Virus record (IMG/VR): IMGVR_UViG_3300023184_000081
Span: 1-64,000 of that record
Source: a virus
Direction: 5' to 3' (one strand)
DNA: 64,000 nt
In this document: in pieces, positions 954-52,037 of the stretch
Numbering within the stretch: the first letter of the stretch is position 1
Layout of the letters: every line of letters starts with the position of its first letter
Program-made: the position numbers and the translations under genes
The notes under the pieces: generated by a model
Seen by the model: the letters and a program-made list of their open reading frames with translations, nothing else
Database searches by the model: none
What the model was told of the DNA's origin: nothing

Positions 954-2656
954 AATTTAAATCTGTTAGATGGAAAAATTTGCTATCTACGGGAAGCGCA
1001 TTTACAGAAATTTTATTAGATAGAAATACGAATACTCTAGTTGTTGGAGAAAACGGTGCTGGAAAGTCGTCTGTTCTAGATGCTCTTTGTTTTGTTCTTT
1101 ATGGTAAGCCGTTTCGTAAGATTAAAAAAGATCAGCTGCTCAATTCTATAAATGGGCGCGATCTTGTTGTAGAAATTGAATTCGAAATATACAATAAGAA
1201 ATATAAAATTATTCGTGGAATAAAGCCTACGATTTTTGAAATATATCAGAATGATGTATTACTAGATCAGGACGCGGCTAGCAGAGACTATCAGGAGTAT
1301 CTAGAGAAGAATATTTTGAGAATGAATATGAAGTCGTTCACTCAGATTGTAATTCTAGGATCGTCATCTTTCGTTCCTTTCATGCAACTTCCAGCAGGGA
1401 TTCGCAGAGAAGTCATTGAAGATCTCTTAGACATTAGAATCTTTTCAACAATGTCTGTGTTATTGAAGGATAGGATATCTAGCAATAAAGAAGAAATATT
1501 AACGAATAAGAATGAAATTCAAAACTCTATAGATATATTGGAACTACACGAAAAGCAAAAACAAAAGAATAGTGAAAAGAAAAATGAGATCATAATTGTT
1601 TCCAATGAAAGAATATCAGAATTACACTTTAATATTAGCAGAGCAAACGAAGAAATAACTATGGTTCAAAGTGAGATCGACAAGTTATTTGTTGATATTG
1701 AAGATGAATCTAAAGTTATCAAGAGAATATCTAAGATAGAATCATTAGAGAGTGATTTAGAATCTACAAAAACTAAAGCCAAAAAGACTATAAAATTCTA
1801 TGAAGACAACGATAATTGTCCTACCTGCACGCAAACGATTGACGCACTTATCAAGTCGAAGAAAATCGAGGAAAAGCAATCGTCATTGGCTAAGATTAGC
1901 GACGCGCTTATTCTTCTTGGAAAAGAACTCAGCGAAACTCAGAATAGGAATCGCGAGATATCTGAAATTAATAAAAACATCAAAAGTAAAGAGCGAAGGA
2001 TTACAAATGATTTGTCAGCTTCTGTGCTCGCGGATCAACGTGAAATTACTGTTTTGCAAAAGCAAATCGCAAATACCACAACTGATAAAGAAACAGACAA
2101 TGCTGTTGAAATCGATGAAATAGAAAAACGCCTTATCGATCTAAGACTGATTAAAGATCAGCTTTTGCATAGAAAAGAATTATATGAATTAGCTTCAATC
2201 ATATTGAAGGACGGTGGAATTAAGTCACGGATCATCAAACAATATATTCCGATTATGAATTCTCTGATTAATAAGTATCTTGCTTCTATGGACTTCTTCG
2301 TTAAGTTTCAATTGAATGAATCCTTTGAAGAAACTATTCTTTCTCGTCATAGAGATGACTTCACTTATGATTCATTTAGTGAAGGTGAAAAGATGAGAAT
2401 CGACCTAGCCTTGCTCTTTACATGGAGAACTATTGCTAGGATGAAAAATAGCGCGAATACAAATCTTCTTATGTTGGATGAAGTGTTTGATGCGTCATTG
2501 GATGCAAATGGATGTGAAGAGTTTCTAAAATTAATTCATAGTTTAGAAGATGCAAACGTATTCGTTATATCCCATAAAGGTGATATTTTGCAGGATAAAT
2601 TTAGAAGTACAATTAAATTTGAAAAACATAAAAACTTTTCTAGGATATCTCTATGA
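947..2656 (+). CDS. gp46: Recombination endonuclease subunit gp46 (Rad50/SbcC-like ATPase)
   Basis: Walker A GENGAGKS, coiled coil with CPTC zinc hook, FSEGEK signature, LLMLDE Walker B, ISH. Confidence 0.96.
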   Translation: MLKFKSVRWKNLLSTGSAFTEILLDRNTNTLVVGENGAGKSSVLDALCFVLYGKPFRKIKKDQLLNSINGRDLVVEIEFEIYNKKYKIIRGIKPTIFEIYQNDVLLDQDAASRDYQEYLEKNILRMNMKSFTQIVILGSSSFVPFMQLPAGIRREVIEDLLDIRIFSTMSVLLKDRISSNKEEILTNKNEIQNSIDILELHEKQKQKNSEKKNEIIIVSNERISELHFNISRANEEITMVQSEIDKLFVDIEDESKVIKRISKIESLESDLESTKTKAKKTIKFYEDNDNCPTCTQTIDALIKSKKIEEKQSSLAKISDALILLGKELSETQNRNREISEINKNIKSKERRITNDLSASVLADQREITVLQKQIANTTTDKETDNAVEIDEIEKRLIDLRLIKDQLLHRKELYELASIILKDGGIKSRIIKQYIPIMNSLINKYLASMDFFVKFQLNESFEETILSRHRDDFTYDSFSEGEKMRIDLALLFTWRTIARMKNSANTNLLMLDEVFDASLDANGCEEFLKLIHSLEDANVFVISHKGDILQDKFRSTIKFEKHKNFSRISL

Positions 2657-3324
2657 ATCGATTTGAAAATATACCTATATTATTTAATGAAGTATATAAA
2701 CTTGGATATATATCGTGTTCAGTTCCCACTGATATTACTCAATGTATAGAAACTGAAATTCAAAAAATGATAGAGACTGATTTTAGAGATTGTATTAGTT
2801 ATAATTCACAGTTAGCTGGATCTATTCATAATGAATACCTTTTGACACAAAGCGTTCGTTGTTTAGATGAATTTTTAAAAGTCGTGGCTCCTAGATATTG
2901 GGATTATTTTGGAAATATGAATGCGTATAAAGATCATAGAATCCAGATGAATAGGACGCTAAGTAAAGAATACGGATATCCGATCAAAGATTTGTGGATA
3001 AATTTTCAAAAGAAGTATGAATTTAATCCAATACATTCGCACTCAGGAGACCTTTCTTTTGTAATATGGCATAAAATACCATACGATATAGAAAAAGAAA
3101 AAGAAATGGCTAATATCGGAAGAACCGCAGTTGCTGGATCGTTTGTTTTCAATTATCCAGATCATCTTCATAGGGGAGGAGTTAGTCAACATCCCATAGT
3201 TGTAGATAAGTTTCGTAAAGATACTATCATTATTTTTGACTCAAGAATGCAACATCTTGTATATCCGTTTTATACAAGTGATGAATATAGAATATCTATT
3301 TCTGGAAATTTGGAGATTATATGA
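2653..3324 (+). CDS. Putative 2OG-Fe(II) oxygenase
   Basis: WINFQ…FNPIHSH, distal H-V-P-F and RISISGN C-terminus typical of phage 2OG-Fe(II) oxygenases. Confidence 0.75.
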   Translation: MNRFENIPILFNEVYKLGYISCSVPTDITQCIETEIQKMIETDFRDCISYNSQLAGSIHNEYLLTQSVRCLDEFLKVVAPRYWDYFGNMNAYKDHRIQMNRTLSKEYGYPIKDLWINFQKKYEFNPIHSHSGDLSFVIWHKIPYDIEKEKEMANIGRTAVAGSFVFNYPDHLHRGGVSQHPIVVDKFRKDTIIIFDSRMQHLVYPFYTSDEYRISISGNLEII

Positions 3325-3533
3325 CAAAAGAATTTTTATCTGAATATGGATCTAGTGTGCCTATCGTAGAATGTGATCGTTCTGATTGTAGAATAATTAA
3401 AAGTAAAAAATTTACTCCACTTTATCAAAATGAAGTTTATGATAAGAACGGAAATGTTCTCGCTGAAAATTGTTCTGGTTCAGAAATGAAATGTTTAATT
3501 TGTGGTAAAGAATGGAAAAGAGAAGAATTATGA
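3321..3533 (+). CDS. Small Cys-containing hypothetical protein (possible Zn ribbon)
   Basis: ATGA-coupled ORF, CxxxxC…CxxC. Confidence 0.55.
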   Translation: MTKEFLSEYGSSVPIVECDRSDCRIIKSKKFTPLYQNEVYDKNGNVLAENCSGSEMKCLICGKEWKREEL

Positions 3534-4054
3534 AATTATCTTTAGTGAGTTCTGATCATCCGATACTTCGTCAAAAGGCTGAAGATTTTGATTTTGTTGG
3601 TGGCTATGATCCAAAAGAATTATTTGAAAGTATGTGTGAACTCATGTGCAAAGAGCGCGGTATAGGGCTCGCCGCTCCGCAATGTGGTATTCCTTTGAAC
3701 GTTTTTATTATGGGGAATCCGTCGGATCCTTCTTCTATCATATCTGTGTTTAATCCAAAAGTCATCGAAGAAATAGGTGAGGATGTTTACTATGACGAAG
3801 GATGCTTGACATTTCCAGGACTATTTGTTAGAATGAAACGCAATAGCGCAATCCGAGTTCGATACACAACCTATCAAAATTTTACAGACACAATAAAATT
3901 TGATGGTATGACCGCTAGAGTATTTCTTCATGAGTGCGATCATTTGCAAGGAGTTCTCTATACGGATATTGCTAAACCTTATCATTTGGAGAAAGCAAAA
4001 CGTAAACAGAAAATTTATGTTAAACAAAAGCAAAGACAAGATGCCCTACTTTAA
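3530..4054 (+). CDS. def: Peptide deformylase
   Basis: GIGLAAPQ, EGCLT, HECDH motifs; likely start MKLSL at 3530. Confidence 0.95.
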   Translation: MKLSLVSSDHPILRQKAEDFDFVGGYDPKELFESMCELMCKERGIGLAAPQCGIPLNVFIMGNPSDPSSIISVFNPKVIEEIGEDVYYDEGCLTFPGLFVRMKRNSAIRVRYTTYQNFTDTIKFDGMTARVFLHECDHLQGVLYTDIAKPYHLEKAKRKQKIYVKQKQRQDALL

Positions 4055-5252
4055 GAGTGATGTTACTTCAGAATCGTCTAAAAAACTATTCACGGTAATT
4101 TCTACATTTGCTGGGGGCGGCGGATCGTCTACTGGATATCGCTTGGCTGGAGGAAATGTTCTCGCAATAAACGAGTTCGTTGAAGAAGCTATCAAAACAT
4201 ATTCATTGAACTTTCCAGATACTAAAATCATTCCTGGTGATATTAAAAAACTTTCAGGAAAAGACTTTCTAGATGTCTCTGGATTAAATGCTGGCGATTT
4301 GGATATATTTGATGGATCTCCTCCATGCTCTGCATTTTCTGTTTCTTCTTCATCTAAGGGGAAAAATTGGAAGGGTGCGATAGTAGATACTCGAAAATCA
4401 TATTTCGATGATGAAGGTGAAATGGTCCACGAGGGATCTGTGAAAATCAGTTCTGGTATAAAGTCATACTCTGATGGAAAAACTGTAGAAGCCATTGAAG
4501 ATCTGTTCATTGAATTTATTCGCGTCGCTAAAGATATAAAACCTAAAGTGATTATTGCAGAAAATGTAAAGGGTTTGACAATGGAAACGGCTCGCGCTAA
4601 ACTAGCAGAGTTCATTAATGGATTTGAAAAGATAGGATATCTTACCACATATAAAGTATTAAACGCAGCAGAGTATGGAGTTCCACAGAGTAGACAAAGA
4701 ACATTCTTTGTTTGCGTTAGAGAAGATGTTGCAGATGCAATTGGAATGAATATGTTAAATGTAAATAGCATTGCATTTCCTGATCCATCTACTCCAAAAG
4801 AACATGGCGAATATTCTAAAGATGTTGGTATTGAGAAAGCGATTGGAGATCTAGTTAATGATCCACAGGAAGTAAAAGAACTATTGGATGTTATTGAAAA
4901 TGGATTCCTAAAGAAATTTGTAGCTTTATTGCCAAAAAATCCATCTAAAGTTCTACAACCAAAAAAGACTTGTTTCAATCTAAAGAGACCAGCTCGTCAT
5001 CTTCCGTGTCCAACACTAACACAGACTGGTCAACAAAAAGGTGCGTCTGGCGTTATACATTATAATGAAGATCGCAAGTTGACAATTAAAGAATTAAAGC
5101 GTATAATGAGTCTTCCTGATGATTATGAATTGACGGGAACTTTCGACCAACAAGCAGAACGTATCGGAAGAATGGTCGCTCCGAAGATGATGTTCGCTTT
5201 AGCAAGTCACGTTTATAAGAATATATTGAAACCATACAAGGATTTATCATGA
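4041..5252 (+). CDS. C5 DNA cytosine methyltransferase-family enzyme, probably a carboxy-SAM-dependent carboxymethyltransferase
   Basis: Motif I FAGGGG, IV GSPPC, VI ENV, VIII QSRQR, IX RKLTIKELKRIM; motif X reads IGRMV instead of IGN(A/S)V; likely start MPYFK at 4041. Confidence 0.9.
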   Translation: MPYFKSDVTSESSKKLFTVISTFAGGGGSSTGYRLAGGNVLAINEFVEEAIKTYSLNFPDTKIIPGDIKKLSGKDFLDVSGLNAGDLDIFDGSPPCSAFSVSSSSKGKNWKGAIVDTRKSYFDDEGEMVHEGSVKISSGIKSYSDGKTVEAIEDLFIEFIRVAKDIKPKVIIAENVKGLTMETARAKLAEFINGFEKIGYLTTYKVLNAAEYGVPQSRQRTFFVCVREDVADAIGMNMLNVNSIAFPDPSTPKEHGEYSKDVGIEKAIGDLVNDPQEVKELLDVIENGFLKKFVALLPKNPSKVLQPKKTCFNLKRPARHLPCPTLTQTGQQKGASGVIHYNEDRKLTIKELKRIMSLPDDYELTGTFDQQAERIGRMVAPKMMFALASHVYKNILKPYKDLS

Positions 5253-5932
5253 CACAGCCGTTTACATTTGCGCAGCGTTCCGAAGGATTTGAAACACATA
5301 TAGACTTATCTATAAGAGGTTATTCTAATCTTATTGACGATGTATTGAAACTTTCAGAATATTTTGTGGAAGACGACACAAATGTTGTCGATATTGGATG
5401 CTCTACAGGAAAGATGTTAAGGTCTATGATCAGTCAAAATTCCTTCGCTAAAAGCGCGTTGTATACTGGAATCGAATTAGAAAAAGAATTTGTCGATGGT
5501 TGGAAACTTGAGTCGATAGCAAATTTCACACCAAATTTATATCTCTTAAACGAAGATGTTCGAGACTTCAATTTCGACAACTGTTCATTCGTTTCTTCAA
5601 TTTTCACTCTAATGTTTATGCCACTGCATCAACGAGAGATGGTCGTCAAAAACATATATAATGGATTGAATTCCGGTGGCGCGTTCGTTTTTTCTGAGAA
5701 GACTATGGCTGACTCTGCAAAAATTCAAGATATCAGAACTTTTACATATTACGACTATAAAAGAACAAATTTCACAACTGATGATATTATGGATAAAGAA
5801 AAAACTTTGCGATCAATGGCTAAACCAAACACCCGTGACGAATTGTTAAATATGTGCAAAGCTGCAGGTTTTAGCAAAATTGAATCTTTTTGGCAAAACC
5901 ATGCGTTTGTAGGATTTCTTGCAATAAAATAA
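5249..5932 (+). CDS. cmoA: CmoA-like carboxy-S-adenosylmethionine synthase
   Basis: FTF…F…SIRGY, DIGCSTG, IFTLMF, GGAFVFSEK, AGF…FWQ…F…AIK match the CmoA family along its length; ATGA-coupled to the MTase. Confidence 0.82.
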   Translation: MTQPFTFAQRSEGFETHIDLSIRGYSNLIDDVLKLSEYFVEDDTNVVDIGCSTGKMLRSMISQNSFAKSALYTGIELEKEFVDGWKLESIANFTPNLYLLNEDVRDFNFDNCSFVSSIFTLMFMPLHQREMVVKNIYNGLNSGGAFVFSEKTMADSAKIQDIRTFTYYDYKRTNFTTDDIMDKEKTLRSMAKPNTRDELLNMCKAAGFSKIESFWQNHAFVGFLAIK

Positions 5933-5935
5933 ACC

Positions 5936-5964
5936 TTGACAATTAACCCTCATGATAGTATAAT
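5936..5964 (+). promoter_or_regulatory. Sigma70-type early promoter
   Basis: TTGACA-N17-TATAAT. Confidence 0.85.
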
Positions 5965-5989
5965 AGTATTTCAAACTACGGAAAAAATC

Positions 5990-8116
5990 ATGATCGATAA
6001 ACTTGCAAAGCTCCTCGCAACTGAAAATATTATTGTTGAACATCGAAACACCTCCACGGCTTCATTCGATACCAAGAATCGAGTTTTAACTCTTCCGATG
6101 TGGAAAGACATCACTCCCGCATTGGAAACACTATTAGTGGGTCATGAAGTCGGTCATGCTTTAAATACTCCAGATTCTGGTTGGAGTCCAATGGCATCTG
6201 AAAAGAAAACTATCTGTAATATCGTAGAGGACGCTCGAATTGAGCGCAAGATGAAGATTAAGTATCCTGGCCTTCGTCGTGATTTTTATGAAGGATATAA
6301 AGAACTCTTTGATAAAGATTTTTTCAAGATAAAAGATCAAAAAATAGAAAAGATGAATTTCTTGAATCGCATAAATTTACATTTTAAGATTGGCGCATTC
6401 CAGAATATTCCTTTCGAAGAAGATGAACAAGGTTTTGTCGATGAAATCGGAGAAACAAAAACTTGGAATGAAATTGTAGATATAACAGATAGAATATTTG
6501 ATTTCTTGAAGGAAAAACAGGATAAGAACATTATAGATCCATCTCCGATTAATGACGATGGAGATGACTACGATCAACAAGAATTTGACATCTTGGAAAA
6601 AGAAGAATCGGATAAATTTGAAAAATCTGACGAATTCGAAGAACAAGACAGTGAAGAAGTAGATCAATTTTCTTGCGATACACAAACTTCAATGGATGAT
6701 AACATTGCAGAACAATTGATTGATGATAAGTCGAAACCGATCTGCTATGTAAATGTTCGCGATATAGAATATAAAGATAAAACTATATCTCATACAACTT
6801 TGCTTCGGATGTTCAAAGATGAAAAAAATACTCGAATAAAAAATGACTGGCAATTTCGAAGCGCACACTCAGATGATTATGATGAGTTTTATAAGAATCA
6901 CGATTCCAAAATCACTAAACAAAATAAAATTTCTTGGAATAAATTTTTAAATGTAAACAGCAAAGTCGTTACTTATTTGATCAAAGAATTTGAAATGAAA
7001 AAAGCTGCTGATCATTATATTAAACAGCGTGAAGGTAAGACTGGAGTCATTAATTCAAATAAACTTCATGCATATACAATTATTGATGATATCTTTAAAA
7101 AGACCACGATTCTACCAGAATCAAAAAATCACGGATTAGTTCTTTTTGTTGATTTTTCTGGATCTATGAGTGAAAATATTTACGGAACAATCGAACAATT
7201 ACTTTGCTTGACATTATTTTGTCGTAGAGTTAACATTCCCCATCGTGTTTATGCATTTACTGATCAAATGATTTCTGAAGAATATCTATCCAAACCCATT
7301 ACAGAAACTTCTCATGTCCCAGGAGATATCGTTGTGACTGGGCAAGATAGATTGCTGGAACTCTTTACAGAGAAAATGCGAAATAATCAGTTTTCTGAAA
7401 TGGGTCAATGGCTTTTGAATTTTGCAGAGGGTGCACGTTCGAGATGCAATGGTTATCGGGGCACGAATGAATACTATTCTCAGTGTATTCATTTGAATTC
7501 AACACCGTTGAATTCCGCATTGATTTATGCCAGAAAAATAATTGAAGACTTTAAAAAGCAGACAAATGCACAAATAATCAATTGTGTCGTTTTGACTGAC
7601 GGTGAATCTAATATTAGTAAATGTGCTGGAATCGCTGCAGCGTTTACATATCATTCTAGAGAAAAAACGATTGCTCGTGATATCCAGACTAAACAAGAAA
7701 TTGTGATAAAAAAACCTGCTATCGATAATGCTTATGATAATAGAAATACGGATGTTTTTGTTGAGTTTCTCAGAAATAGATGCCATGTTAATGTGATTTG
7801 TTATCGAATTGAAAATTCTAATTCTTCTATCAGAAAAACTATTAATTCTGCATGCCGTCCGATGAGTCCTGAAGCCGCAGGAATAAATTACAGAACAATG
7901 CGAAAACAAAAATATTTTCATATCAAAGGATATATGAAATTTGATGATTACTTTTTGATCCATGGTGGAGAAAATATCAATACCGAAGATTCTTTGTTGG
8001 GAGATGAAGTTTATGAGAACAAAAATTCCCTTGCGAAAGCGTTCATGAAAGCCAATGTTCGCCGTGGTATTAGTCGAGTTCTTCTATCGAAATTTATTGA
8101 GAAAATTGCAGCATAA
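5990..8116 (+). CDS. CobT-like VWA-domain protein with N-terminal HExxH metallopeptidase-like domain
   Basis: HEVGH, NIVEDARIE, acidic linker, MIDAS DFSGSM, TPL, LTDGE; adjacent to MoxR ATPase. Confidence 0.85.
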   Translation: MIDKLAKLLATENIIVEHRNTSTASFDTKNRVLTLPMWKDITPALETLLVGHEVGHALNTPDSGWSPMASEKKTICNIVEDARIERKMKIKYPGLRRDFYEGYKELFDKDFFKIKDQKIEKMNFLNRINLHFKIGAFQNIPFEEDEQGFVDEIGETKTWNEIVDITDRIFDFLKEKQDKNIIDPSPINDDGDDYDQQEFDILEKEESDKFEKSDEFEEQDSEEVDQFSCDTQTSMDDNIAEQLIDDKSKPICYVNVRDIEYKDKTISHTTLLRMFKDEKNTRIKNDWQFRSAHSDDYDEFYKNHDSKITKQNKISWNKFLNVNSKVVTYLIKEFEMKKAADHYIKQREGKTGVINSNKLHAYTIIDDIFKKTTILPESKNHGLVLFVDFSGSMSENIYGTIEQLLCLTLFCRRVNIPHRVYAFTDQMISEEYLSKPITETSHVPGDIVVTGQDRLLELFTEKMRNNQFSEMGQWLLNFAEGARSRCNGYRGTNEYYSQCIHLNSTPLNSALIYARKIIEDFKKQTNAQIINCVVLTDGESNISKCAGIAAAFTYHSREKTIARDIQTKQEIVIKKPAIDNAYDNRNTDVFVEFLRNRCHVNVICYRIENSNSSIRKTINSACRPMSPEAAGINYRTMRKQKYFHIKGYMKFDDYFLIHGGENINTEDSLLGDEVYENKNSLAKAFMKANVRRGISRVLLSKFIEKIAA

Positions 8117-8122
8117 TATACC

Positions 8123-8151
8123 TTGACAATTAGGTGCAAGTGAAGTATAAT
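8123..8151 (+). promoter_or_regulatory. Sigma70-type early promoter
   Basis: TTGACA-N17-TATAAT. Confidence 0.85.
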
Positions 8152-8186
8152 ATTAGTTCACGTATCAATTATATAATGGAAATAAA

Positions 8187-9371
8187 ATGAAACATGTAAT
8201 TCTTGAAGAGCTTATTAAGAAATTTGGCGCGAATGCAGTTGTTCGTAAAAAAGAAGTCGAAGAGTATGTTCAATCACTTGGTTATGATAATGCGAAATTT
8301 CTTTATCGAAAAAAATTCAATGTTGGTTGGGGACAGTTTCAATTGCCGGCTGACCTGAAATCTTCAACGATCAATATGATTGCAAAAGTTGTTCCGATTA
8401 CTCGTGAAGCAAAGATTGAGAATAAGATGCAATTTGATCCAAATGCAGAATCCTCGCACAATTATGCGATTGTTCCAGAACGCGATTCTCATTATGTTCC
8501 GTTTGGAGAATTTAAAGACATTGAAAAGATTATAAAATCAAAACAATTTTTTCCAGTGTTCATTTCCGGTATGTCTGGAAATGGTAAGACGCTTATGGTC
8601 GAACAAGCGTGTTCTCGCTCACATACCAAAATGATTCGTATTCAGTTGTCGAAAGAAACTGATGAAGATGATTTGATGGGTGGATTCCGACTCATCAATG
8701 GAGAAACGAAATTCATTAAAGGTCCTGTTCTTCGTGCAATGGAACTTGGCGCACTACTTCTTTTGGATGAAGCTGATCGTGCTGATCCCGGTAAGATTAT
8801 GTGTCTGCAGGGAGTTCTTGAAGGCAAACCATATTTCGTGAAAAAGACTGGTGAAGTTGTTTATGCCAAACTCGGATTTAATATTATCGTCACAGCTAAT
8901 ACTAAAGGAAAGGGCTCGGAAGATGGTCGTTATGTTTCTGCGACGATGCTCGACGATGCTTGGCTTGAACGATTTCCGATCACGATTGAGCAGCAATTTC
9001 CGAATCCGACTATCGAACGAAAAATTCTGACTCTGTATTTTTCAGATAATCGTGAGATAAAAGAAGATGAATCTAAATTTATAGATAAACTTATCATGTG
9101 GGCAGAAGTAATTCGAAAGACGTTTGCAGAAAATGCGATTGATGAAGTTATCTCTACGCGCCGTCTTGTCCATATCGTTCAGACGTATAAGCTCTTTGGT
9201 GATCGTATGCGTTCGATTCGTATGTGTATCAATCGTTTTGACGAAGAAACGAAAACTGCATTTCTGGATCTCTATTCAAAAGTAGATGAGACAGTAACCC
9301 CGCCTTCAGTAGTATCAGATAGTAACATTGAGTCTGGTGCGCAGGAGACTACGCCACCTGTCGTGGCGTAG
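8187..9371 (+). CDS. CobS-like MoxR AAA+ ATPase
   Basis: GMSGNGKT, LLLDE, TANTKGKG, ERF, ISTRRL. Confidence 0.9.
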   Translation: MKHVILEELIKKFGANAVVRKKEVEEYVQSLGYDNAKFLYRKKFNVGWGQFQLPADLKSSTINMIAKVVPITREAKIENKMQFDPNAESSHNYAIVPERDSHYVPFGEFKDIEKIIKSKQFFPVFISGMSGNGKTLMVEQACSRSHTKMIRIQLSKETDEDDLMGGFRLINGETKFIKGPVLRAMELGALLLLDEADRADPGKIMCLQGVLEGKPYFVKKTGEVVYAKLGFNIIVTANTKGKGSEDGRYVSATMLDDAWLERFPITIEQQFPNPTIERKILTLYFSDNREIKEDESKFIDKLIMWAEVIRKTFAENAIDEVISTRRLVHIVQTYKLFGDRMRSIRMCINRFDEETKTAFLDLYSKVDETVTPPSVVSDSNIESGAQETTPPVVA

Positions 9372-10683: not shown

Positions 10684-11346
10684 ATGAAACTTTCTAAGCA
10701 AACAATTGAAATTTTGAAAAACTTTTCTTCTATTAATATGTCTGTTGTATTGAAACCAGGAAGTAAAATCCGAACTGTATCTCCTCAAAAAACTATTTTG
10801 GCTCAAGCGATCGTTTCGGAAACTTTTCCTAAAGAATGTGCGATCTATGACTTGAACATATTCATCAATACATCAGCGATGTTTGAAGATCCAGATTTCA
10901 ATTTCAATGAAAACTCAGTCGAAATTAAAAATGGTCCAGCATTTGCTAGAGTTCCATATGCTAGCATCTCTACCATCGCGACTCCGCCAGAAAAAGATAT
11001 CGTTCTTCCTAGTGTAGATGTGACGTTTACAATTATGAAGGAAGTTATGGCTCAAGCGATCAAAGCTGCAGGAGTTATGTTGCTGCCAGAAGTTGCTCTG
11101 TTGGGGAAGGACGGGTCAGCATCTCTTACTGCGATTGATTCGCGTCAAGATGGCGGTGCTTTCTTTAATTATTTGGTCGGAACTTCTACGACCAATTACA
11201 ATATGATTTTTAAAGTAGAAAATTTGAAGTTACTTCCTCGCGACTATGATGTTACTGTCTCCGCCAAAGGAATTGCAAATTTCAAATCCAAGACTGGTGA
11301 TATCGAGTATTGGATTGCAACAGAGCAAGGTTCGACTGCCGTCTAA
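10684..11346 (+). CDS. gp45: Sliding clamp gp45
   Basis: MKLSKQTIEILKNFSSIN, IYDL, ENLKLLPRDYDV; 45-44-62-regA synteny. Confidence 0.95.
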   Translation: MKLSKQTIEILKNFSSINMSVVLKPGSKIRTVSPQKTILAQAIVSETFPKECAIYDLNIFINTSAMFEDPDFNFNENSVEIKNGPAFARVPYASISTIATPPEKDIVLPSVDVTFTIMKEVMAQAIKAAGVMLLPEVALLGKDGSASLTAIDSRQDGGAFFNYLVGTSTTNYNMIFKVENLKLLPRDYDVTVSAKGIANFKSKTGDIEYWIATEQGSTAV

Positions 11347-11374
11347 CAATTGCAATTTATATTATGGAGTTTAA

Positions 11375-12319
11375 ATGCTTGCTCGTGAAGAATTTTTATT
11401 TGTTGAAAAGTATCGCCCCCACAAAATATCAGATTGTATTCTACCCAATAATCTAAAAACAGTCTTTCAAAAGTTTGTTGATGATAAAGCAATTCCAAAT
11501 CTATTATTGAGTGGTGGGTCAGGAGTCGGAAAGACAACAGTTGCTCGTGCGATGTTGGACGAGATTAATGGCGATTATATTATTATCAACGGATCGATGA
11601 ATGGTAATATCGATACGCTTCGAAATGATATTCGTAATTACGCAGCAACTGTTTCTTTCACTTCTGATCGGAAGTATGTTATATTGGATGAAGCGGATTA
11701 TCTAAATGCTAATTCGACTCAACCTGCTCTTCGTAATTTCATGGAAGAGTTCTCGAGTAATTGTGGATTTATTCTGACCTGTAATTTTAAGAATAGGATT
11801 ATCGCTCCTCTGCATTCTCGATGTTCAGTTATTGATTTTAAGATAGATGCCAGCGAAAAGGCTGAACTTGCGACACAGTTCCTAAAAAGGACTTACACTA
11901 TTCTAGAAGCAGAGGGAATCGAATACGATAAGAGGGTTGTTGCTCAGCTTATCACTAAATTCTTTCCCGATTGGCGTCGTGTTCTAAATGAACTACAACG
12001 TCACGCAGCGACTGGTAAAATCGATGCCGGAATTTTAGCTCAAGTTGCAGATGTCGATTTGAAAGATATTATTAAACATCTTAAAGAGCGTGATTTTACT
12101 TCTATGCGGAAATGGGTCGCGCAGAATAATGCAATGGAAACGAATACTCTCTTTCGCAAATTATATGAATCTGCGTATGATTATCTTAAACCGGAATCTG
12201 TTCCTCAATTAGTTTTAATTCTTGGTGATTATCAATACAAGAGCGCATTCGTTGTAGATCAGGAAATAAACATCGCTGCTTGTTTAACTTCCATCATGGC
12301 TGACTGTCAGTTCAAATAG
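11375..12319 (+). CDS. gp44: Clamp loader large subunit gp44
   Basis: VEKYRP, GSGVGKT, ILDEAD, SRC, FPDWRR. Confidence 0.96.
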   Translation: MLAREEFLFVEKYRPHKISDCILPNNLKTVFQKFVDDKAIPNLLLSGGSGVGKTTVARAMLDEINGDYIIINGSMNGNIDTLRNDIRNYAATVSFTSDRKYVILDEADYLNANSTQPALRNFMEEFSSNCGFILTCNFKNRIIAPLHSRCSVIDFKIDASEKAELATQFLKRTYTILEAEGIEYDKRVVAQLITKFFPDWRRVLNELQRHAATGKIDAGILAQVADVDLKDIIKHLKERDFTSMRKWVAQNNAMETNTLFRKLYESAYDYLKPESVPQLVLILGDYQYKSAFVVDQEINIAACLTSIMADCQFK

Positions 12320-18936: not shown

Positions 18937-18965
18937 TTTACATTTAGTTGTATATGAAGTATAAT
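18937..18965 (+). promoter_or_regulatory. Sigma70-type promoter
   Basis: TTTACA-N17-TATAAT. Confidence 0.75.
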
Positions 18966-18990: not shown

Positions 18991-21492
18991 TTGAGCAAAT
19001 TCTATACATCAGCTATTCTATGGGGAGATAATGTTCTTGTTCGTGGGTATGATGACGACGGAGCATTCTCCAAAAAGATACACTACAAACCGAAACTATT
19101 CGCTCTAGCTAAAACTAAATCAGCTGCGACTTGGTCGAGCATTGAAGGACTACCTCTAGAACCAATAGAGTTTGATTCAGTCACTGAAGCTAAAAACTTC
19201 ATCGAAAATTATAAAAATGTTACAGGGTTTCCTATCTATGGATTTTCTAGATATGAATATGCGTGGCTGAATGAAGAATATCGAAATGAAGTTGTATACG
19301 ATGTTGATAGAATTCGTGTCGCTAATATCGATATCGAAGTATACTCTGGAAACGGATTTCCGAATGTAAGTTCTGCGAGTGAAGAAATTACTGCAATCAC
19401 ACTTAAGAAAGACAAAATTTTCTATGTGTTTGGCTGTAATAATTATGAGCCTGAACGTGACGATGTAAAATATATTCATTGTAAGAATGAAAGGCATCTA
19501 TTGAAGGCGTTCTTAGATGAATGGGAACGCTACGGCGCTCCCGATATTCTGACTGGATGGAATATATCTTTCTTCGATATTCCATATCTAGTCAATCGTA
19601 TTCGTCAAGTTCTTGATGAAAAAGAATGTAAACGTCTTTCGCCATGGAAGCATATAAATGAGAAGACGACTAAATTCATGGGAAAAGAACATACATTAAT
19701 AACAATCGTTGGTGTTGCAGTTCTTGATTATCTTGAGATGTATAAGAAGTTCACATACACTCAGCAAGAATCTTATCGTCTAGATCATATAGCATTCACT
19801 GAACTTGGTGAAAAGAAATTAGATTTTCACGAACTGGGTTACGAAACTCTTCATGAATTTTATGAAAACGATTTCGTTAATTACATCAATTATAATATTC
19901 GAGATGTTGAGCTTGTAGATAAACTAGACGATAAGATGAAACTTATTGAGATGGTTTTAACTCTAGCATATGACGCCAAAGTCAATATGGCTGATACTTT
20001 CACGCAAGTTAAGATGTGGGATGTTATCATTCATAATCATCTATATAAAAAGAATATTGCTATTCCGCTTTCTGGAGGAGGTCATAAGTCCGAACAATTT
20101 ATTGGTGCTTATGTTAAGGATCCACAAGTCGGATCGAGCGATTGGGTAATATCATTCGACTTGAATTCATTGTATCCACACTTGATCATGCAGTATAATA
20201 TTTCTCCAGAAACTATGCTGAAGGGTAAGAAGGCAGATATATCTATTGATCACTTCTTGAGTGATAAACCACTTCCTCTTATCGATGGATATTGTCTTGC
20301 ACCAAATGGAAGCTATTTTAAAAATGATAAGCAAGGATTCCTTCCTGAAATTATGGAAAGGCTCTATGCAGATAGAACGATCTATAAAGAGAAGATGATT
20401 GTTTCTCAAAAGAAATATGAAGTAGCAAAAACTCCAGAAGAGAAGAAAAAGTATTCTAAAGAAATATCACGTTTCAAGAATATGCAGTTGGCTAGAAAAG
20501 TGCAATTGAATTCTGCTTACGGCGCGATTGGTAATCAGTATTTTAGATTCTTTGACATAGATCACGCAACTGCAATTACCATGGGCGGACAGTTAGCTAT
20601 TCGTTGGGCAGAAAATCATTTGAACATCTATATAAATAGATTGTTAAAAACAAATGAAATCGATTATGTTATTGCATCCGATACGGACAGTCTATACATT
20701 ACTTTTGGTAGGCTTGTGCAGAGTGTTTTTAAAGATAGAGACAACATTTCAAAAGAAAGAATTGTCGAATTCTTGGATAGGATTGCACGCGAGAAATTTG
20801 AACCTGTTATTGATGATATTTACCAGAGACTTGCTGAAAGATGCAGTGCTTTCCAACAGAAAATGAACATGAAGCGAGAGGTTATCGCTGATAGAGGAAT
20901 ATGGACAGCTAAAAAAAGATATATTCTAAACGTGTATGATAGTGAGGGTGTTCGTTATGCAAAACCTAAACTGAAGATGATGGGCGTCGAAACAGTTAAA
21001 TCATCCACTCCGTCTAGTTGTAGAGCAGCATTGACAGAGTCTTTGAATATTATCATGAATAATAGCGAAGAACGAATGCAAGAATATATCAAAGAGTTTA
21101 AGAAGAAATTTAAAACTCTACCGTTTGAGGATATATCGTTTCCAAGAAGTGTTCAGAATGTTCAATTCTATTCTAAGGAAACGAAAGCTATACCGATTGC
21201 AGTCCGAGGTGCGATTACATTCAATAAGGCTCTCAAAGATTTTAAACTAACAAAAAAATATGAGTCGATTAAAGATGGCGAGAAGATAAAATACTGCTAT
21301 ATGAAGATGCCAAATCCATTGCATGAAAATATTTTATCTATTGTATCCATTCTTCCTAAAGAATTTAAAATCAATGCATATGTGGATTACGATTTGCAAT
21401 TCGAAAAGGCGTTTCTTGATCCATTGCGATCAATATTAAATGTGATTCACTGGAAAGAAGAACCGATTGCATCTCTAGAAAACTTTTTTTAA
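18991..21492 (+). CDS. gp43: Family B DNA polymerase gp43
   Basis: ExoI DIE, FDIPY, YNIRD, SFDLNSLYP, KVQLNSAYG, ASDTDS, KKRY. Confidence 0.98.
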   Translation: MSKFYTSAILWGDNVLVRGYDDDGAFSKKIHYKPKLFALAKTKSAATWSSIEGLPLEPIEFDSVTEAKNFIENYKNVTGFPIYGFSRYEYAWLNEEYRNEVVYDVDRIRVANIDIEVYSGNGFPNVSSASEEITAITLKKDKIFYVFGCNNYEPERDDVKYIHCKNERHLLKAFLDEWERYGAPDILTGWNISFFDIPYLVNRIRQVLDEKECKRLSPWKHINEKTTKFMGKEHTLITIVGVAVLDYLEMYKKFTYTQQESYRLDHIAFTELGEKKLDFHELGYETLHEFYENDFVNYINYNIRDVELVDKLDDKMKLIEMVLTLAYDAKVNMADTFTQVKMWDVIIHNHLYKKNIAIPLSGGGHKSEQFIGAYVKDPQVGSSDWVISFDLNSLYPHLIMQYNISPETMLKGKKADISIDHFLSDKPLPLIDGYCLAPNGSYFKNDKQGFLPEIMERLYADRTIYKEKMIVSQKKYEVAKTPEEKKKYSKEISRFKNMQLARKVQLNSAYGAIGNQYFRFFDIDHATAITMGGQLAIRWAENHLNIYINRLLKTNEIDYVIASDTDSLYITFGRLVQSVFKDRDNISKERIVEFLDRIAREKFEPVIDDIYQRLAERCSAFQQKMNMKREVIADRGIWTAKKRYILNVYDSEGVRYAKPKLKMMGVETVKSSTPSSCRAALTESLNIIMNNSEERMQEYIKEFKKKFKTLPFEDISFPRSVQNVQFYSKETKAIPIAVRGAITFNKALKDFKLTKKYESIKDGEKIKYCYMKMPNPLHENILSIVSILPKEFKINAYVDYDLQFEKAFLDPLRSILNVIHWKEEPIASLENFF

Positions 21493-21500: not shown

Positions 21501-21872
21501 ATGACCACCCACGCAGTAGTTCCCGCAGAGTATCTTTCATTGGATTATGGATTTTCGGCTGTTGATGAAAGTGCTATAAAGCCAATTGAGTCCATATCGA
21601 CGACAGAACAAGCTATTCCTTCTCAGGATATTCAACGTCTTGAAGAAAAAATAGACGCGCTTACTTCACTAGTATTTCAATTGGAACAACGTGGAGACGA
21701 AAATATAACTGAAGCGCAGTTGAAAGATAAGATACACAAACTAGAACAGATTATCGTTCCGCTTCTAAATAATCTTTTAAAGACTGCAGATAAGGAATAT
21801 ATCTTATGGCCGAATCGTGGTCCAATAGTTCAAAAACAATTGGATGCAGTATTAGCTATTACAAGAGGCTAA
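21501..21872 (+). CDS. Conserved hypothetical protein
   Basis: DYGFSAVDE, PLLNNL, YILWPNR. Confidence 0.7.
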   Translation: MTTHAVVPAEYLSLDYGFSAVDESAIKPIESISTTEQAIPSQDIQRLEEKIDALTSLVFQLEQRGDENITEAQLKDKIHKLEQIIVPLLNNLLKTADKEYILWPNRGPIVQKQLDAVLAITRG

Positions 21873-22691
21873 ATGATTGATAAGTTACTATGTAATGAGA
21901 TACAGAAAAATTCTAAATCAGGATCTGTAGCTGTTTTAATGTCTGGTGGTGTTGATAGTATTTCTTGCGCTTTCTCTGCACATAGATTAGGTAAGAAAGT
22001 TCATGTGTATACGTTTCATTTAGAAAACGATCCTTCATATGATGCAATAAAGGCTATTGAAGTTGCAAAGATCATGAATTGGGATTATACTTTAACTGAA
22101 GTTCCTACTAAAAATCTCGAGAGTGATTTTATACATCTAGCTACAGATATCAAATGCAAAAAGAAGACTCATTTTGAATGCACATTTCCATTTCTATATG
22201 TATATCCGAAGATAAAAGAATCTGAGGTAATTTCTGGAATTGCAGCTGATGGTCATTATGGAGTTTCTAAGAAAGCGTGTATTCATTACAAATCACCAAA
22301 ATGTAAATTCGATGAATTCCGTATAGATTATTTTTCACAAAAAAATCCTGCAGGATTGATTCAACAAAAAATTCTAGCTAAACAATATGGTAAGAAATTC
22401 ATTGCTCCTTATTTAGAATCAAATGTAATTGATTTCTTTCGACGGTATGATTGGTATGAATTGAATAAACCATTTCAAAAACATCATGTAGTGAATTCTT
22501 TTCCTGAATTTAAAGAAATAGGTAAGTTTAAGAAACATATTAATCTTCAATTAGGTTCAAACATAGATAAATTATTTGAAACTCTTTTAGAAAACGATAG
22601 AATCAATTTCAAGAAACGAATTCGAGTTATGGATATATGTCGCGATTGGAGTAAATTAGGTAAAAGTTTATATGAAGATCAAAATCAATAA
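21873..22691 (+). CDS. Asparagine-synthetase-like ATP-dependent amide ligase (no glutaminase domain)
   Basis: PP-loop VLMSGGVDS, SGIAADGHYG (cf. GEGADE.FGGY), APYL. Confidence 0.75.
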   Translation: MIDKLLCNEIQKNSKSGSVAVLMSGGVDSISCAFSAHRLGKKVHVYTFHLENDPSYDAIKAIEVAKIMNWDYTLTEVPTKNLESDFIHLATDIKCKKKTHFECTFPFLYVYPKIKESEVISGIAADGHYGVSKKACIHYKSPKCKFDEFRIDYFSQKNPAGLIQQKILAKQYGKKFIAPYLESNVIDFFRRYDWYELNKPFQKHHVVNSFPEFKEIGKFKKHINLQLGSNIDKLFETLLENDRINFKKRIRVMDICRDWSKLGKSLYEDQNQ

Positions 22692-23559
22692 AGACAGATC
22701 ATTAGCAATTTTTACGGGGATTACACTTTCATTTGTATCCGCGTGGTATGCCATAACTGGATTAGCTGCTATATTTTCTGCATCGTTTTGGCCAATCATT
22801 ATAATGGGAACTACTCTAGAGATAGGTAAAATTATTACAGCTTCTTATCTATACAGAAACTGGAGTATATTACCCTTTCTGATGAAAACTTATTTTTCTA
22901 TTGCAGTTATTATATTGATGTTTATCACGAGTATGGGTGTTTTCGGATTTCTTTCTAAAGCACATATAGATCAGAATCAATCTTCAGGTGACGTTCAATC
23001 TAAGATAGAAATGATAGACTCTAAGATAGAAAGAGAAAAGAGTCGGATAGATACTAGTGCGCTCGCCCTCAAACAATTAGATTCTGCAGTCAATAAAATC
23101 ATTTCAGATAAAGATGCAGAGCAAGGATTACGTTATAGAAAGAGTCAAGAAAAAGAACGGTTATCAATAAACAAAGAAATTAAAGATGCACAAAAAACTA
23201 TTGATGAACTTCAAACAGAAAAGATGCCACTAGCAAAAGAGATGCGTGCTGCCGAAAAAGAAGTCGGACCTATTCGTTATGTAGCCGAATTAATCTACGG
23301 AGAATCTAACAAAGAAATATTAGAGAAAGCAGTGCGATTTATGATCATCGCTTTGGTTTTAGTATTAGACCCATTGGCTTTATTACTCATAGTTTCCGCC
23401 AATATTAATTATTCGCAGAAATCCAAACCGACAGATATTTCTAATAAATATTCTATGGAAGCTCGGAAGTGGTTTAAGAGTAACGCAAATGCAGTAGCAA
23501 CAGATGGTAAGAATTGGATGGAAATGCCAGACGTAACTGTAACAAAAACAAAAAAATAA
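22672..23559 (+). CDS. Membrane protein with coiled coil
   Basis: Three N-terminal TMs, coiled coil, EVGPIRY, C-terminal TM with DPLA. Confidence 0.7.
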   Translation: MKIKINKDRSLAIFTGITLSFVSAWYAITGLAAIFSASFWPIIIMGTTLEIGKIITASYLYRNWSILPFLMKTYFSIAVIILMFITSMGVFGFLSKAHIDQNQSSGDVQSKIEMIDSKIEREKSRIDTSALALKQLDSAVNKIISDKDAEQGLRYRKSQEKERLSINKEIKDAQKTIDELQTEKMPLAKEMRAAEKEVGPIRYVAELIYGESNKEILEKAVRFMIIALVLVLDPLALLLIVSANINYSQKSKPTDISNKYSMEARKWFKSNANAVATDGKNWMEMPDVTVTKTKK

Positions 23560-23614: not shown

Positions 23615-24724
23615 ATGTCGAAATACGATTTTATCAAAAACATGATTAAGGATCTTGGCGATGTTGATACACATTTGGCGGACGATGGTTTACATTCCTC
23701 AGAATATTCTGGAGCTATCGATACTGGCTCTTATATTCTTAATGCTGCACTAACTGGAAGCATCTACGGCGGAGTTCCAAATAATAAGATCACCGCATTC
23801 GCAGGTGAAAGTGCTACAGGAAAAACATTTTTCGTTCTAGGAATTGCTAAAAGGTTTCTGGACGATAATAAAGATGCAGCAATTTTCTACTATGACACAG
23901 AAGCTGCTGTTACTAAACAGATGATGCTTGATCGCGGGATTGATACGAAACGAGTTATCATTGTTGAAACAGATACCATTCAGAATTTTAGAACTCATGC
24001 GATTAAAGTCCTAGATAATTATGCTAAGATCTCGAAGGATGATCGTCCTCCAATGCTTATGATTCTAGATTCCTTTGGTATGTTGTCGAGCACGAAAGAA
24101 ATTTCTGATTCTACTGAAGGTTCAGAAACCAAAGATATGACCAAAGCTGCTTTAGCTAAAGCAACCTTTCGAGTGCTTTCATTGAAGCTGGCAAAAATTA
24201 ATGTTCCTCTGATCATCACCAATCACGTCTATGCAGCTATCGGTTCTTTCTTTCCTACAAATGAAATTTCTGGCGGATCCGGATTGAAATACGCAGCATC
24301 ACAGATTGTAATGCTGTCAAAGAAAAAAGATAAAGAGGGAACTGAAGTCGTAGGCAATATCATTCACTGCAAGATGCACAAGAGTCGAATGACAAAAGAA
24401 AATAAGATGGTTGATGTTAAACTATCTTATTCTAAAGGTCTAGATCGCTATTATGGATTGTTGGATCTTGCTGAAAAATACGGTATCATTAAGAAGGTCA
24501 GCACTCGTTACGAACTTCCAGATGGAACTAAAGTTTTTGGTAAAACAATTAATGACGAACCAGAAAAATACTTTACAAAAGATCTCCTTGATCAATTAGA
24601 AGTTGCAGCTGCTCGTGAATTTAAATATGGACAAGAAACTAAGTCCGACGATGGATCAATTGAAACTACACAGAAGAAAGTAAATGAGAATCGAATCGAC
24701 GATACTGAATCATCTGTTGCATGA
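23615..24724 (+). CDS. uvsX: RecA-like recombinase UvsX
   Basis: DTGSY, GESATGKT, YYDTE, ILDS, SGGSG. Confidence 0.95.
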   Translation: MSKYDFIKNMIKDLGDVDTHLADDGLHSSEYSGAIDTGSYILNAALTGSIYGGVPNNKITAFAGESATGKTFFVLGIAKRFLDDNKDAAIFYYDTEAAVTKQMMLDRGIDTKRVIIVETDTIQNFRTHAIKVLDNYAKISKDDRPPMLMILDSFGMLSSTKEISDSTEGSETKDMTKAALAKATFRVLSLKLAKINVPLIITNHVYAAIGSFFPTNEISGGSGLKYAASQIVMLSKKKDKEGTEVVGNIIHCKMHKSRMTKENKMVDVKLSYSKGLDRYYGLLDLAEKYGIIKKVSTRYELPDGTKVFGKTINDEPEKYFTKDLLDQLEVAAAREFKYGQETKSDDGSIETTQKKVNENRIDDTESSVA

Positions 24725-50494: not shown

Positions 50495-50508
50495 ATTTGG
50501 AAAATAGT

Positions 50509-50583
50509 GTCCTGTTTGACTTCTGGTGAGGTCACCACCCTTTCACGGTGGCAAGAGGGGTTCGAATCCCCTACAGGACGCCA
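50509..50583 (+). tRNA. tRNA-Glu(TTC)
   Basis: Cloverleaf, CT-TTC-AC loop, TTCGAAT, CCA. Confidence 0.92.
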
Positions 50584-50703
50584 TATTGAAGCGCATTATT
50601 GTCTATTTCGGCGTTCCTCCGATGGGTCAGAGTGTTTATATAGACACCCTGATAAGGAAAACAGTATCCATTGACAAGATATTGGTAGTGCGTTTCAATA
50701 TGG
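50581..50703 (+). ncRNA. Structured RNA cassette 1 closed by a 20-bp stem
   Basis: CCATATTGAAGCGCATTATT / GGTAGTGCGTTTCAATATGG, with internal hairpins. Confidence 0.6.
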
Positions 50704-50832
50704 TAACATGCAACAGCATGAGAGTAACGTGATACTGGCCAGTAAGCGTTCGGACATGCAATATCTCAAAGCGGAAAGTCATGAGTCCGTAGAGAAAAAG
50801 ATTTCGGTTCGATTCCGAATTGCGTGTGACCA
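50702..50832 (+). ncRNA. tRNA-like RNA (acceptor stem, T arm, CCA, enlarged core)
   Basis: CATGCAA/TTGCGTG stem, TTCGG-TTCGATT-CCGAA T arm, 3' ACCA; no canonical anticodon arm. Confidence 0.55.
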
Positions 50833-50838
50833 TATTAC

Positions 50839-50912
50839 GCGGGATTAGTTAAATGGTATAATTAGAGTTTTCCAAACTCCAGTCATCAGTTCGATTCTGA
50901 TATTCCGCTCCA
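50839..50912 (+). tRNA. tRNA-Gly(TCC)
   Basis: Cloverleaf, TT-TCC-AA, CCA. Confidence 0.9.
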
Positions 50913-50920
50913 TTTGTTGT

Positions 50921-50994
50921 TGGGGATTAGTTAAATGGTATAACCGCGGATTTTGATTCCGCTATCACAAGTTCGATTCTTGTATCCCCTGCCA
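50921..50994 (+). tRNA. tRNA-Gln(TTG)
   Basis: Cloverleaf, TT-TTG-AT, CCA. Confidence 0.9.
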
Positions 50995-51024
50995 GAAAAT
51001 TTTATTTAACAGAAAGGAAATTGT

Positions 51025-51057
51025 ATGAAGCGAAAATCCAAAACACGCAAGACATAG
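51025..51057 (+). CDS. Micro-ORF MKRKSKTRKT inside the tRNA operon
   Basis: GAAAGGAAA RBS, ATG, TAG overlapping the first base of tRNA-Lys. Confidence 0.45.
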   Translation: MKRKSKTRKT

Positions 51058-51133
51058 GGAGTGTGGTGTAAAGGCTTGCACAACGGACTTTTAATCCGCT
51101 AAGAGTTAGGTTCGATTCCTACCACTCCCACCA
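51057..51133 (+). tRNA. tRNA-Lys(TTT)
   Basis: Cloverleaf, CT-TTT-AA, CCA. Confidence 0.85.
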
Positions 51134-51208
51134 TATGAAAACACATTCTTTAAGGTCTTGGTCGTTACCAGCCTGGCAAAAACGACGACAGAGTGTGTTT
51201 CCATATAG
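51131..51208 (+). ncRNA. Structured RNA cassette 2 (long hairpin)
   Basis: CCATATGAAAACACATTCT / AGAGTGTGTTTCCATATAG plus inner GTCGTT/AACGAC stem. Confidence 0.55.
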
Positions 51209-51216
51209 TAGAAAAA

Positions 51217-51308
51217 GGAGAGTAATGCAGCGGGGTTGGTCCTGCGACCAGCCTTGAAAACTGGGTTCTGAGAAATCGGATGGGGTTCGACTCCTCTGCT
51301 CTCCGCCA
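51217..51308 (+). tRNA. tRNA-Ser(TGA)
   Basis: CT-TGA-AA loop, long variable arm, GCCA. Confidence 0.85.
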
Positions 51309-51314
51309 ATTTTT

Positions 51315-51390
51315 GACTCGTTAGCTCAATCGGAAGAGCACATGCCTGTCACGCATGAGGTAAGGGGATCGAAACCCCTACGGGTCGCCA
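51315..51390 (+). tRNA. tRNA-Asp(GTC)
   Basis: Cloverleaf, CT-GTC-AC, GCCA. Confidence 0.92.
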
Positions 51391-51398
51391 AGAATTAC

Positions 51399-51492
51399 GG
51401 AGATTTGGCTGAGCATGGTTTAAGGCAGCGGATTGCTAATCCGTCGATCGAGGAAACTTGATCCATTGGTTCGAATCCAATAATCTCCGCCA
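51399..51492 (+). tRNA. tRNA-Ser(GCT)
   Basis: TT-GCT-AA, long variable arm, GCCA. Confidence 0.92.
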
Positions 51493-51506
51493 GAATTAAA
51501 AGTTTT

Positions 51507-51602
51507 GCTCCCCAGCACTCGGCGTGCGGCATGCCCTTATAAAGCGTGGAGACTGGTCAGATAGGCTGGAACGGGAAGGTTCAAAACCTTCGGGGAGTAC
51601 CA
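51507..51602 (+). tRNA. Atypical tRNA, anticodon TAT (nominal Ile), long variable arm
   Basis: GCTCCCC/GGGGAGT acceptor, CT-TAT-AA loop, ~27-nt variable region, GAAGG-TTCAAAA-CCTTC, ACCA. Confidence 0.6.
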
Positions 51603-51607
51603 AATTT

Positions 51608-51685: not shown

Positions 51686-51690
51686 AACTT

Positions 51691-51765: not shown

Positions 51766-51772
51766 AAGAAAT

Positions 51773-52032: not shown

Positions 52033-52037
52033 GAATT

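Follow-up and report, generated by a model that had tools for sequence, protein, structure and literature searches.

The CmoA-CmoX-CmoY system of DNA hypermodification was first shown in December 2025 in the Synechococcus phage S-B43 (Yang et al., Nat Commun 2025, PMC12783734). In this phage, CmoA converts S-adenosylmethionine (SAM) and prephenate into carboxy-S-adenosylmethionine (Cx-SAM), with a kcat of 2.33 per s for Cx-SAM formation by the S-B43 enzyme (SpCmoA). SpCmoX carboxymethylates cytosine at C5 within GC sites, and SpCmoY, a stand-alone ligase of the asparagine synthetase type, converts the resulting 5-carboxymethylcytosine (5cxmC) into its glycine amide, 5-glycylcarboxymethylcytosine (5gcxmC), which is the base found in virion DNA (PMC12783734). 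Wild-type SpCmoX accepts only Cx-SAM and not SAM, and the R350N variant is inactive with both. In its 1.9 Å structure (8YF3), Arg350 occupies the position of HhaI Asn304 and is in contact with the carboxymethyl group, mirroring, as the authors state, the engineered N374K substitution of M.MpeI (PMC12783734). The CmoA of an E. coli host can also supply Cx-SAM to SpCmoX, and a survey in the same paper, in which the SPPC motif is one of two criteria for calling CmoX, lists 5,615 candidate CmoX sequences, some of them from IMG/VR (PMC12783734). The locus described here lies in the first 64 kb (64,000 nucleotides, hereafter the window) of the 80,241-base record IMGVR_UViG_3300023184_000081, from a freshwater T4-like phage with a Kyanoviridae-type background. 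In all likelihood, as judged from sequence and predicted structure, it represents a CmoX-CmoA-CmoY system of three genes by which the phage hypermodifies cytosines of its own DNA after replication.

The cmoX homologue (plus strand, 4041..5252; ATG at 4041, stop TGA at 5250-5252) encodes a predicted DNA cytosine C5-carboxymethyltransferase of 403 amino acids. The protein matches PF00145 (expectation value, E, 2.3e-53), scores 152.7 bits against TIGR00675, which has a cut-off of 100.65, and is matched over residues 1-397 by the SpCmoX structure 8YF3 at ~50% identity (E 1.2e-112). Its motifs read FAGGGG (motif I), SPPC (motif IV), ENV at residues 174-176, QSRQR at residues 216-220, RKLTIKELKRIMSLPDDY (motif IX) and IGRMV (motif X). 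The SPPC codons (plus strand, 4317..4328; residues 93-96, with the catalytic Cys96) are invariant in 36 aligned relatives, and E174, R218 and R220, the cytosine contacts of the ENV and QxRxR motifs, are invariant in alignment A5 of relatives. The initial annotation had drawn attention to an Arg codon at 5169-5171 in the IGRMV of motif X, and both the sequence and its translation bear this out (plus strand, 5169..5171; AGA, Arg377). In the motif-X alignment that it had called for, Arg377 falls on the Asn of M.HaeIII IGNAV (domain 3 of the alignment) and on SpCmoX Arg350, with ERIGRMV set on ERVGRMV, and from this alignment Arg377 is the predicted binder of the Cx-SAM carboxylate. An AlphaFold 2 (AF2) model of the protein, with a predicted local distance difference test score (pLDDT) of 86.8, has 8YF3 as its top PDB fold match (E 1.9e-40, template modelling score 0.92), with M.HhaI at 2e-20.

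The cmoA gene (plus strand, 5249..5932) encodes a carboxy-SAM synthase homologue of 227 amino acids and is coupled to cmoX through an ATGA overlap, in which its ATG (5249-5251) overlaps the cmoX stop codon. Over its entire length the protein can be aligned with E. coli CmoA (4GEK, E 1.5e-23) and with H. influenzae YecO (1IM8); together with 4IWN these structures cover residues 5-227 at E ~1e-23, and the SAM-binding DxGCSxG motif is present as VVDIGCSTG. Positions 15-239 of the 239 in the TIGR00740 CmoA model are aligned to it (E 5.7e-32), and no family other than the CmoA models scores comparably. It is 49% identical to SpCmoA without large gaps, both proteins sharing the segment MDKEKxLRxMxKPNT, and 51-52% identical to its homologue in the cyanomyovirus S-CRM01. 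The earlier description of a complete C5 transferase in ATGA coupling with a full-length CmoA-like gene is in agreement with the coordinates of the open reading frames (ORFs), the PF00145 match and the 4GEK alignment. The usual partner of CmoA, CmoB (PF08003), which had been described as absent, was found neither in the window nor in the whole 80,241-base record; likewise, chorismate mutase (PF01817) and ParB_N (PF02195) were not found in the record, although its CheckV completeness of ~43% makes each of these absences weak evidence.

The third gene, cmoY (plus strand, 21873..22691), encodes a homologue of AMP-forming amide ligases with a PP-loop (SGGVDS) and has 272 amino acids. It is the single match in a scan of the record for asparagine synthase domains, scoring 32.6 bits against PF00733 (cut-off 21) over residues 17-168, and it is a stand-alone form without a glutaminase domain. 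Across 97% of its length the protein shares 51% identity (E 1e-80) with SpCmoY, which is annotated in S-B43 as a 'putative asparagine synthase' (QDH50619) and encoded between cmoA and cmoX in that phage; the match is stronger than the 1e-56 edge threshold of the published glycine-type ligase cluster requires. A sequence search of CmoY against the PDB gave no match. The gene lies in the gp43 operon, between the gp43 DNA polymerase (18991-21492) and UvsX (23615-24724), 16.6 kb downstream of cmoX and cmoA. A strong promoter directly upstream of cmoY was not found, the nearest being at 18937-18965, ahead of gp43. Two neighbouring ORFs were considered as extra pathway genes and rejected. ORF 21501-21872 has no family match, and its homologue lies beside gp43 in a related locus (L012) where no cmoY was detected; ORF 22672-23559 (plus strand, 295 amino acids) has no homologue in 80 related loci. 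The latter shares 20 nt with the 3' end of cmoY, and neither Pfam nor PHROG assigns it to a family, a Tetraspanin match being weak and below threshold.

With activities predicted from ~50% identity to the assayed S-B43 enzymes, the proposed pathway would begin with CmoA (5249-5932) converting SAM and host prephenate into Cx-SAM. CmoX (4041-5252) would then flip the target cytosine and attack its C6 with Cys96, after which the C5 carbanion would take the carboxymethyl group of Cx-SAM, its carboxylate held by Arg377, to yield 5cxmC and S-adenosylhomocysteine. CmoY (21873-22691) would adenylate the carboxylate of 5cxmC with ATP and couple an amine, most likely glycine, to give 5gcxmC, and the modified DNA would be expected to resist host restriction enzymes. 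Both cmoX and cmoA lie among probable early promoters of the sigma-70 type, of which one apparently belongs to cmoA itself; cmoY follows the DNA polymerase gene in the same orientation. Each step of the Cx-SAM pathway anticipated by the initial annotation has its counterpart in the S-B43 experiments, the Arg being conserved at ~50% identity, and the related cyanophage pathway which that annotation mentioned is indeed published (PMC12783734). Its proposal that 5cxmC is the base written into the phage DNA stands as far as carboxymethylation is concerned, but the final base is probably 5gcxmC rather than 5cxmC, since the gene at 21873-22691 is 51% identical to SpCmoY and the end product is therefore likely to be an amide of 5cxmC.

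The association of the motif-X Arg with cmoA was followed in two samples. A profile-guided scan of IMG/VR gave 80 loci with CmoX relatives for examination, of at least 450 that exist, with 37-98% identity in the best aligned segment and 49-96% for full-length matches. SPPC and the motif-X Arg are present in all of the relatives readable at that position (78/78), and, within the flanks fetched, cmoA is found in 59/80 loci and cmoY in 39/80. The second sample comprised 12 complete cultured phage genomes from very different lineages. All six with an Arg-type transferase (S-B43, S-CRM01, Moraxella Mcat8, Streptomyces TurkishDelight, Erwinia Yoloswag and Pseudomonas PaBG) encode a CmoA-like protein, versus none of the six with an Asn- or Leu-type enzyme (CL131, YongM2, HCTV-16, Nostoc N1, Oscillospiraceae NatCom and Melnitz; Fisher p = 0.002, uncorrected for relatedness). 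The co-occurrence proposed for the GR motif and cmoA was thus seen in both samples, and GR-type transferases do not commonly occur without cmoA either in the IMG/VR loci or in the 12 genomes. Across the relatives, cmoX, cmoA and cmoY occupy two recurrent sites in many orders, one running from deformylase to peptidase/CobS and the other from gp43 to uvsX; the window phage uses both, with cmoX-cmoA at the first and cmoY at the second. The C5 transferase of Methylophilales phage Melnitz (MZ577097; L005:4010-5224) is 39-45% identical to the window CmoX, adjoins the DNA polymerase gene and has SPPCPP but Leu at the motif-X position (RIGLMV), in a complete genome without a CmoA homologue. TurkishDelight (L091) and PaBG (L094) both carry a ParB-like gene, an Arg-type transferase, CmoA and an AsnB-type ligase in slightly different orders; in TurkishDelight the annotation of the ligase gene includes a glutamine amidotransferase domain, as would be expected of the second ligase cluster in PMC12783734, the ammonia type.

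Compared with S-B43, the window phage has all three genes at 49-51% identity and shares SPPC, the Cx-SAM-binding Arg, the ligase PP-loop and a T4-like background, but the arrangement differs: the order is A-Y-X in S-B43, whereas in the window cmoX precedes cmoA with the ATGA overlap and cmoY is unlinked. The window CmoX also differs in an insertion of 23 residues and in its target recognition domain (TRD), and the phage itself comes from freshwater lakes, with a gp43 ~50% identical to those of cultured cyanomyoviruses and without a detected psbA. Another parallel is S-CRM01 (HQ615693), a freshwater T4-like cyanomyovirus in which cmoA and cmoX also adjoin and overlap, their products being 51% and 47% identical to those of the window and the transferase having the same ERIGRMV motif; there, however, the order is A-X, the pair is placed between the clamp-loader genes and regA, and no cmoY lies beside it. 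S-CRM01 was not among the matches of the CmoY search. The M.MpeI N374K variant resembles the window CmoX in the basic residue at the motif-X Asn, in Cx-SAM use and in the 5cxmC product (as cited in PMC12783734), but it is a laboratory variant with Lys and a CG target, and M.MpeI is a distant C5 methyltransferase relative of the window enzyme (4DKJ/8C56, E ~8e-6). The bacterial CmoA/CmoB pathway, which forms 5-oxyacetyluridine at position 34 of tRNA (cmo5U34), uses the same Cx-SAM synthase fold and reaction, with full-length homology of the window protein to 4GEK and 1IM8. It differs in that the acceptor enzyme in the window is a DNA C5 transferase, CmoB was not found, and the window CmoA is divergent and falls below the equivalog cut-off.

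This last likeness raises the question of whether CmoA serves translation instead, providing Cx-SAM to a host CmoB for cmo5U34 on phage tRNAs while the transferase beside it is a methylase of the ordinary kind that evades restriction. The phage does carry an array of 22-23 tRNA genes at 50508-53196 (plus a doubtful call at 57812-57882) covering almost all amino acids, and the array holds Ala-UGC, Pro-UGG, Thr-UGU, Val-UAC and Leu-UAG, that is, 5/6 of the E. coli isoacceptor types with cmo5U or its methyl ester mcmo5U (PMC4737166). However, UNN anticodons are usual in the tRNA sets of AT-rich phages, so this overlap is unspecific; cmoA is translationally coupled to a transferase with the Cx-SAM-binding Arg and to no tRNA gene; CmoB is missing from the record; and the association of the Arg with CmoA holds in the phages sampled regardless of their tRNA content. 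Translation as the main purpose of CmoA is accordingly considered very improbable, but a role in tRNA modification through a host CmoB is conceivable as a side function.

Equally slight is the chance that CmoX is a conventional SAM-dependent methyltransferase forming 5-methylcytosine, with a neutral Arg in motif X, beside an unrelated class-I methyltransferase acting on small molecules or RNA. Such a reading draws on the Pfam results for the second protein, the CmoA homologue, in which only generic methyltransferase domains are recognised, and on its score below the cut-off of the CmoA equivalog model. It is at odds with the assays of SpCmoX, which has the ERxGRMV motif and takes Cx-SAM only and not SAM (PMC12783734), with the Arg being invariant in the 78 relatives (49-96% identity) and tracking CmoA in 6/6 versus 0/6 genomes, and with the end-to-end alignment of the second protein to CmoA structures and to the assayed SpCmoA. 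There is also little to commend the view of CmoA as mainly a consumer of SAM, countering SAM-dependent host immunity with DNA carboxymethylation as a side benefit. A SAM-consuming role was raised as an open question by the authors of PMC12783734, and a separate consensus promoter (discussed below) could give cmoA early and high expression; but the conserved coupling to an Arg-type transferase, together with a carboxyl-specific ligase, argues that Cx-SAM is the wanted product and not waste. Hypermodification of the phage's own cytosines by CmoX, CmoA and CmoY is therefore preferred.

Several observations nevertheless weigh against this preferred assignment. All function for the window phage is transferred from homologues at ~50% identity, and the record is only ~43% complete. 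The window CmoA scores below the curated equivalog cut-offs (TIGR00740, 111.3 vs 193.3 bits; NF011995, 89.6 vs 285). In E. coli CmoA, Arg199 is the residue in contact with the product carboxylate. A phmmer alignment sets Glu184 of the window protein opposite this residue, with Lys183, Lys185 and Arg188 close by; the active SpCmoA has the same local sequence in this stretch. Because cmoY is 16.6 kb away from cmoX and belongs to another operon, the grounds for linking the two are homology and the neighbouring position of both genes in other phages, namely S-B43 and many IMG/VR relatives. Where 6 kb or more of sequence is available on both sides, about seven relatives carry an Arg-type CmoX without a cmoA nearby; in these, cmoA may lie elsewhere in the genome or the host may supply Cx-SAM, and the linkage of cmoA to cmoX is not obligatory, since host CmoA can substitute in E. 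coli (PMC12783734). The TRD of CmoX is 39% identical to that of SpCmoX, so GC specificity is not to be assumed. Finally, GGCC is mildly depleted in the record (0.58 of expectation), a depletion which a GC-directed protective mark would not predict.

The specificity of the window CmoX deserves separate consideration. Its TRD, between motifs VIII and IX, is markedly less similar to SpCmoX than the catalytic core, which is 52-55% identical, and directly after the catalytic-Cys loop it has a 23-residue insertion (Ser103-Glu125; plus strand, 4347..4415) that the alignment does not show in SpCmoX, S-CRM01 or Melnitz. In the AF2 model this insertion is a beta-hairpin region of low to moderate confidence (pLDDT 42-78). 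CmoX is present as two paralogs, in most cases a tandem pair flanked by cmoY and cmoA, in 17/80 of the related IMG/VR loci (L014-L022, L024, L037-L039, L044, L045, L072 and L081; for example L016:10001-11128 and L016:11149-12291), an arrangement not mentioned in the main text of PMC12783734. Both copies have SPPC and the Arg in all loci where the positions are readable (16/17), and their TRDs are 28-58% identical to each other, suggesting that the tandem paralogs probably have two specificities. The 39% identity between the window and S-B43 TRDs sits inside this range between co-resident copies of single phages and, as such paralogs presumably recognise different targets, the window enzyme should not be credited with the GC motif of SpCmoX. 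With its different TRD and extra loop, the window CmoX may offer a new specificity for the labelling of DNA through 5cxmC.

A perfect TTGACA-N17-TATAAT sigma-70 consensus lies inside cmoX (plus strand, 5079..5107), 142 bp upstream of the cmoA ATG and within the motif-IX codons for L-T-I-K-E-L-K-R-I-M. Such perfect 29-mers occur nine times in the window, all on the plus strand (consensus scan; starting at 892, 5079, 5936, 8123, 10631, 49554, 50421, 60215 and 60971), versus 0.07 expected, and six of the nine start with TTGACAATTA. Eight closely precede a gene start or the tRNA array, the ninth being the site in cmoX; they are probably phage early promoters. The internal site is kept in relatives of 92-96% identity (L006 and L007). 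When the homologous codons of 88 CmoX copies were compared, promoter matches of 11-12/12 were found in 10/34 copies directly followed by cmoA versus 2/54 others (p ~0.001), the matches coming from perhaps four or five clades, and one of those two other copies has cmoA 82 bp downstream. This is suggestive of a separate early promoter for cmoA at 5079-5107, a candidate means of uncoupling Cx-SAM supply from transferase expression. A further promoter-like sequence, TTGACA-17-TAGAAT (11/12, with TG; plus strand, 3806..3834), was seen by consensus scan only; it falls within the gene for peptide deformylase and precedes cmoX by 207 bp. In L012, a CmoX relative of 64% identity (L012:2953-4146) reads ICRMV, with Gly changed to Cys before the Arg, and carries a perfect internal promoter-like site; neither cmoA nor cmoY lies within 10 kb downstream of it.

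Both cmoX and cmoA lie on the plus strand within a run of T4-type early and replication genes. By family or profile matches this run includes a gp46-like SbcC (947-2656), a 2-oxoglutarate-Fe(II) oxygenase (2653-3324), peptide deformylase (3512-4054), the phrog_459 'peptidase' (5990-8116), a CobS-like AAA protein (8187-9371) and gp45 and gp44, the clamp and clamp loader (10684-12319). The stretch recurs, in part or as close variants, in metagenomes of lakes and other fresh waters from more than ten studies, and reads from two freshwater DNA runs and two metatranscriptome runs represent strain variants at 85-99% identity. Short contigs from the RNA libraries extend over 4108-4417 and 4994-5268 (parts of cmoX and the cmoX/cmoA junction); DNA carry-over is possible, neither transcription nor a transcript start is shown by them, and they are not used as evidence here. 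Among cultured phages, a megablast search with positions 3500-8200 gave zero matches in a collection from which near-identical records may be absent, and gp43 is at most ~50% identical to that of any of them, the top matches being marine Synechococcus myoviruses. The photosynthesis gene psbA (PF00124) was not found in the 80-kb record, where ~43% completeness makes the absence weak evidence, nor in two relatives with cmoX and cmoA of 157.6 kb (90% complete) and 145 kb (88% complete); because it is absent from the record and from these near-complete relatives, the host may not be a cyanobacterium.

In the 80,241-base record GTAC is strongly avoided, with 14 sites versus ~128 expected under a second-order Markov model (ratio 0.11), and, GGCC apart, the remaining 4-mer palindromes have ratios near 1. 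The avoidance suggests a GTAC-cutting restriction system in the host which lies outside the cover of the cytosine modification. As a proxy for the CmoX target motif, such restriction-site statistics are uninformative for GC-containing sites.

The window system is a further member of a system already published and, given that the 5,615 candidate CmoX sequences listed in PMC12783734 include some from IMG/VR, it is not new as such; the local novelties are modest, namely the division of the module over two loci, the putative promoter within cmoX, the inserted loop and the divergence of the TRD. The leads from the window and its relatives leave the known chemistry unchanged. So far demonstrated in one cultured cyanophage, the pathway thus extends to T4-like phages that are abundant in fresh water. 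A more far-reaching possibility, which is offered tentatively and is rather doubtful at present, is that this lineage is wired differently, with a cmoA promoter of its own set in the motif-IX codons of cmoX, a CmoX target other than GC owing to the TRD and the 23-residue loop, and, in relatives, tandem paralogs marking two motifs. If this were true, the CmoX family would be a multi-specificity hypermodification toolkit and not a single GC-marking enzyme.

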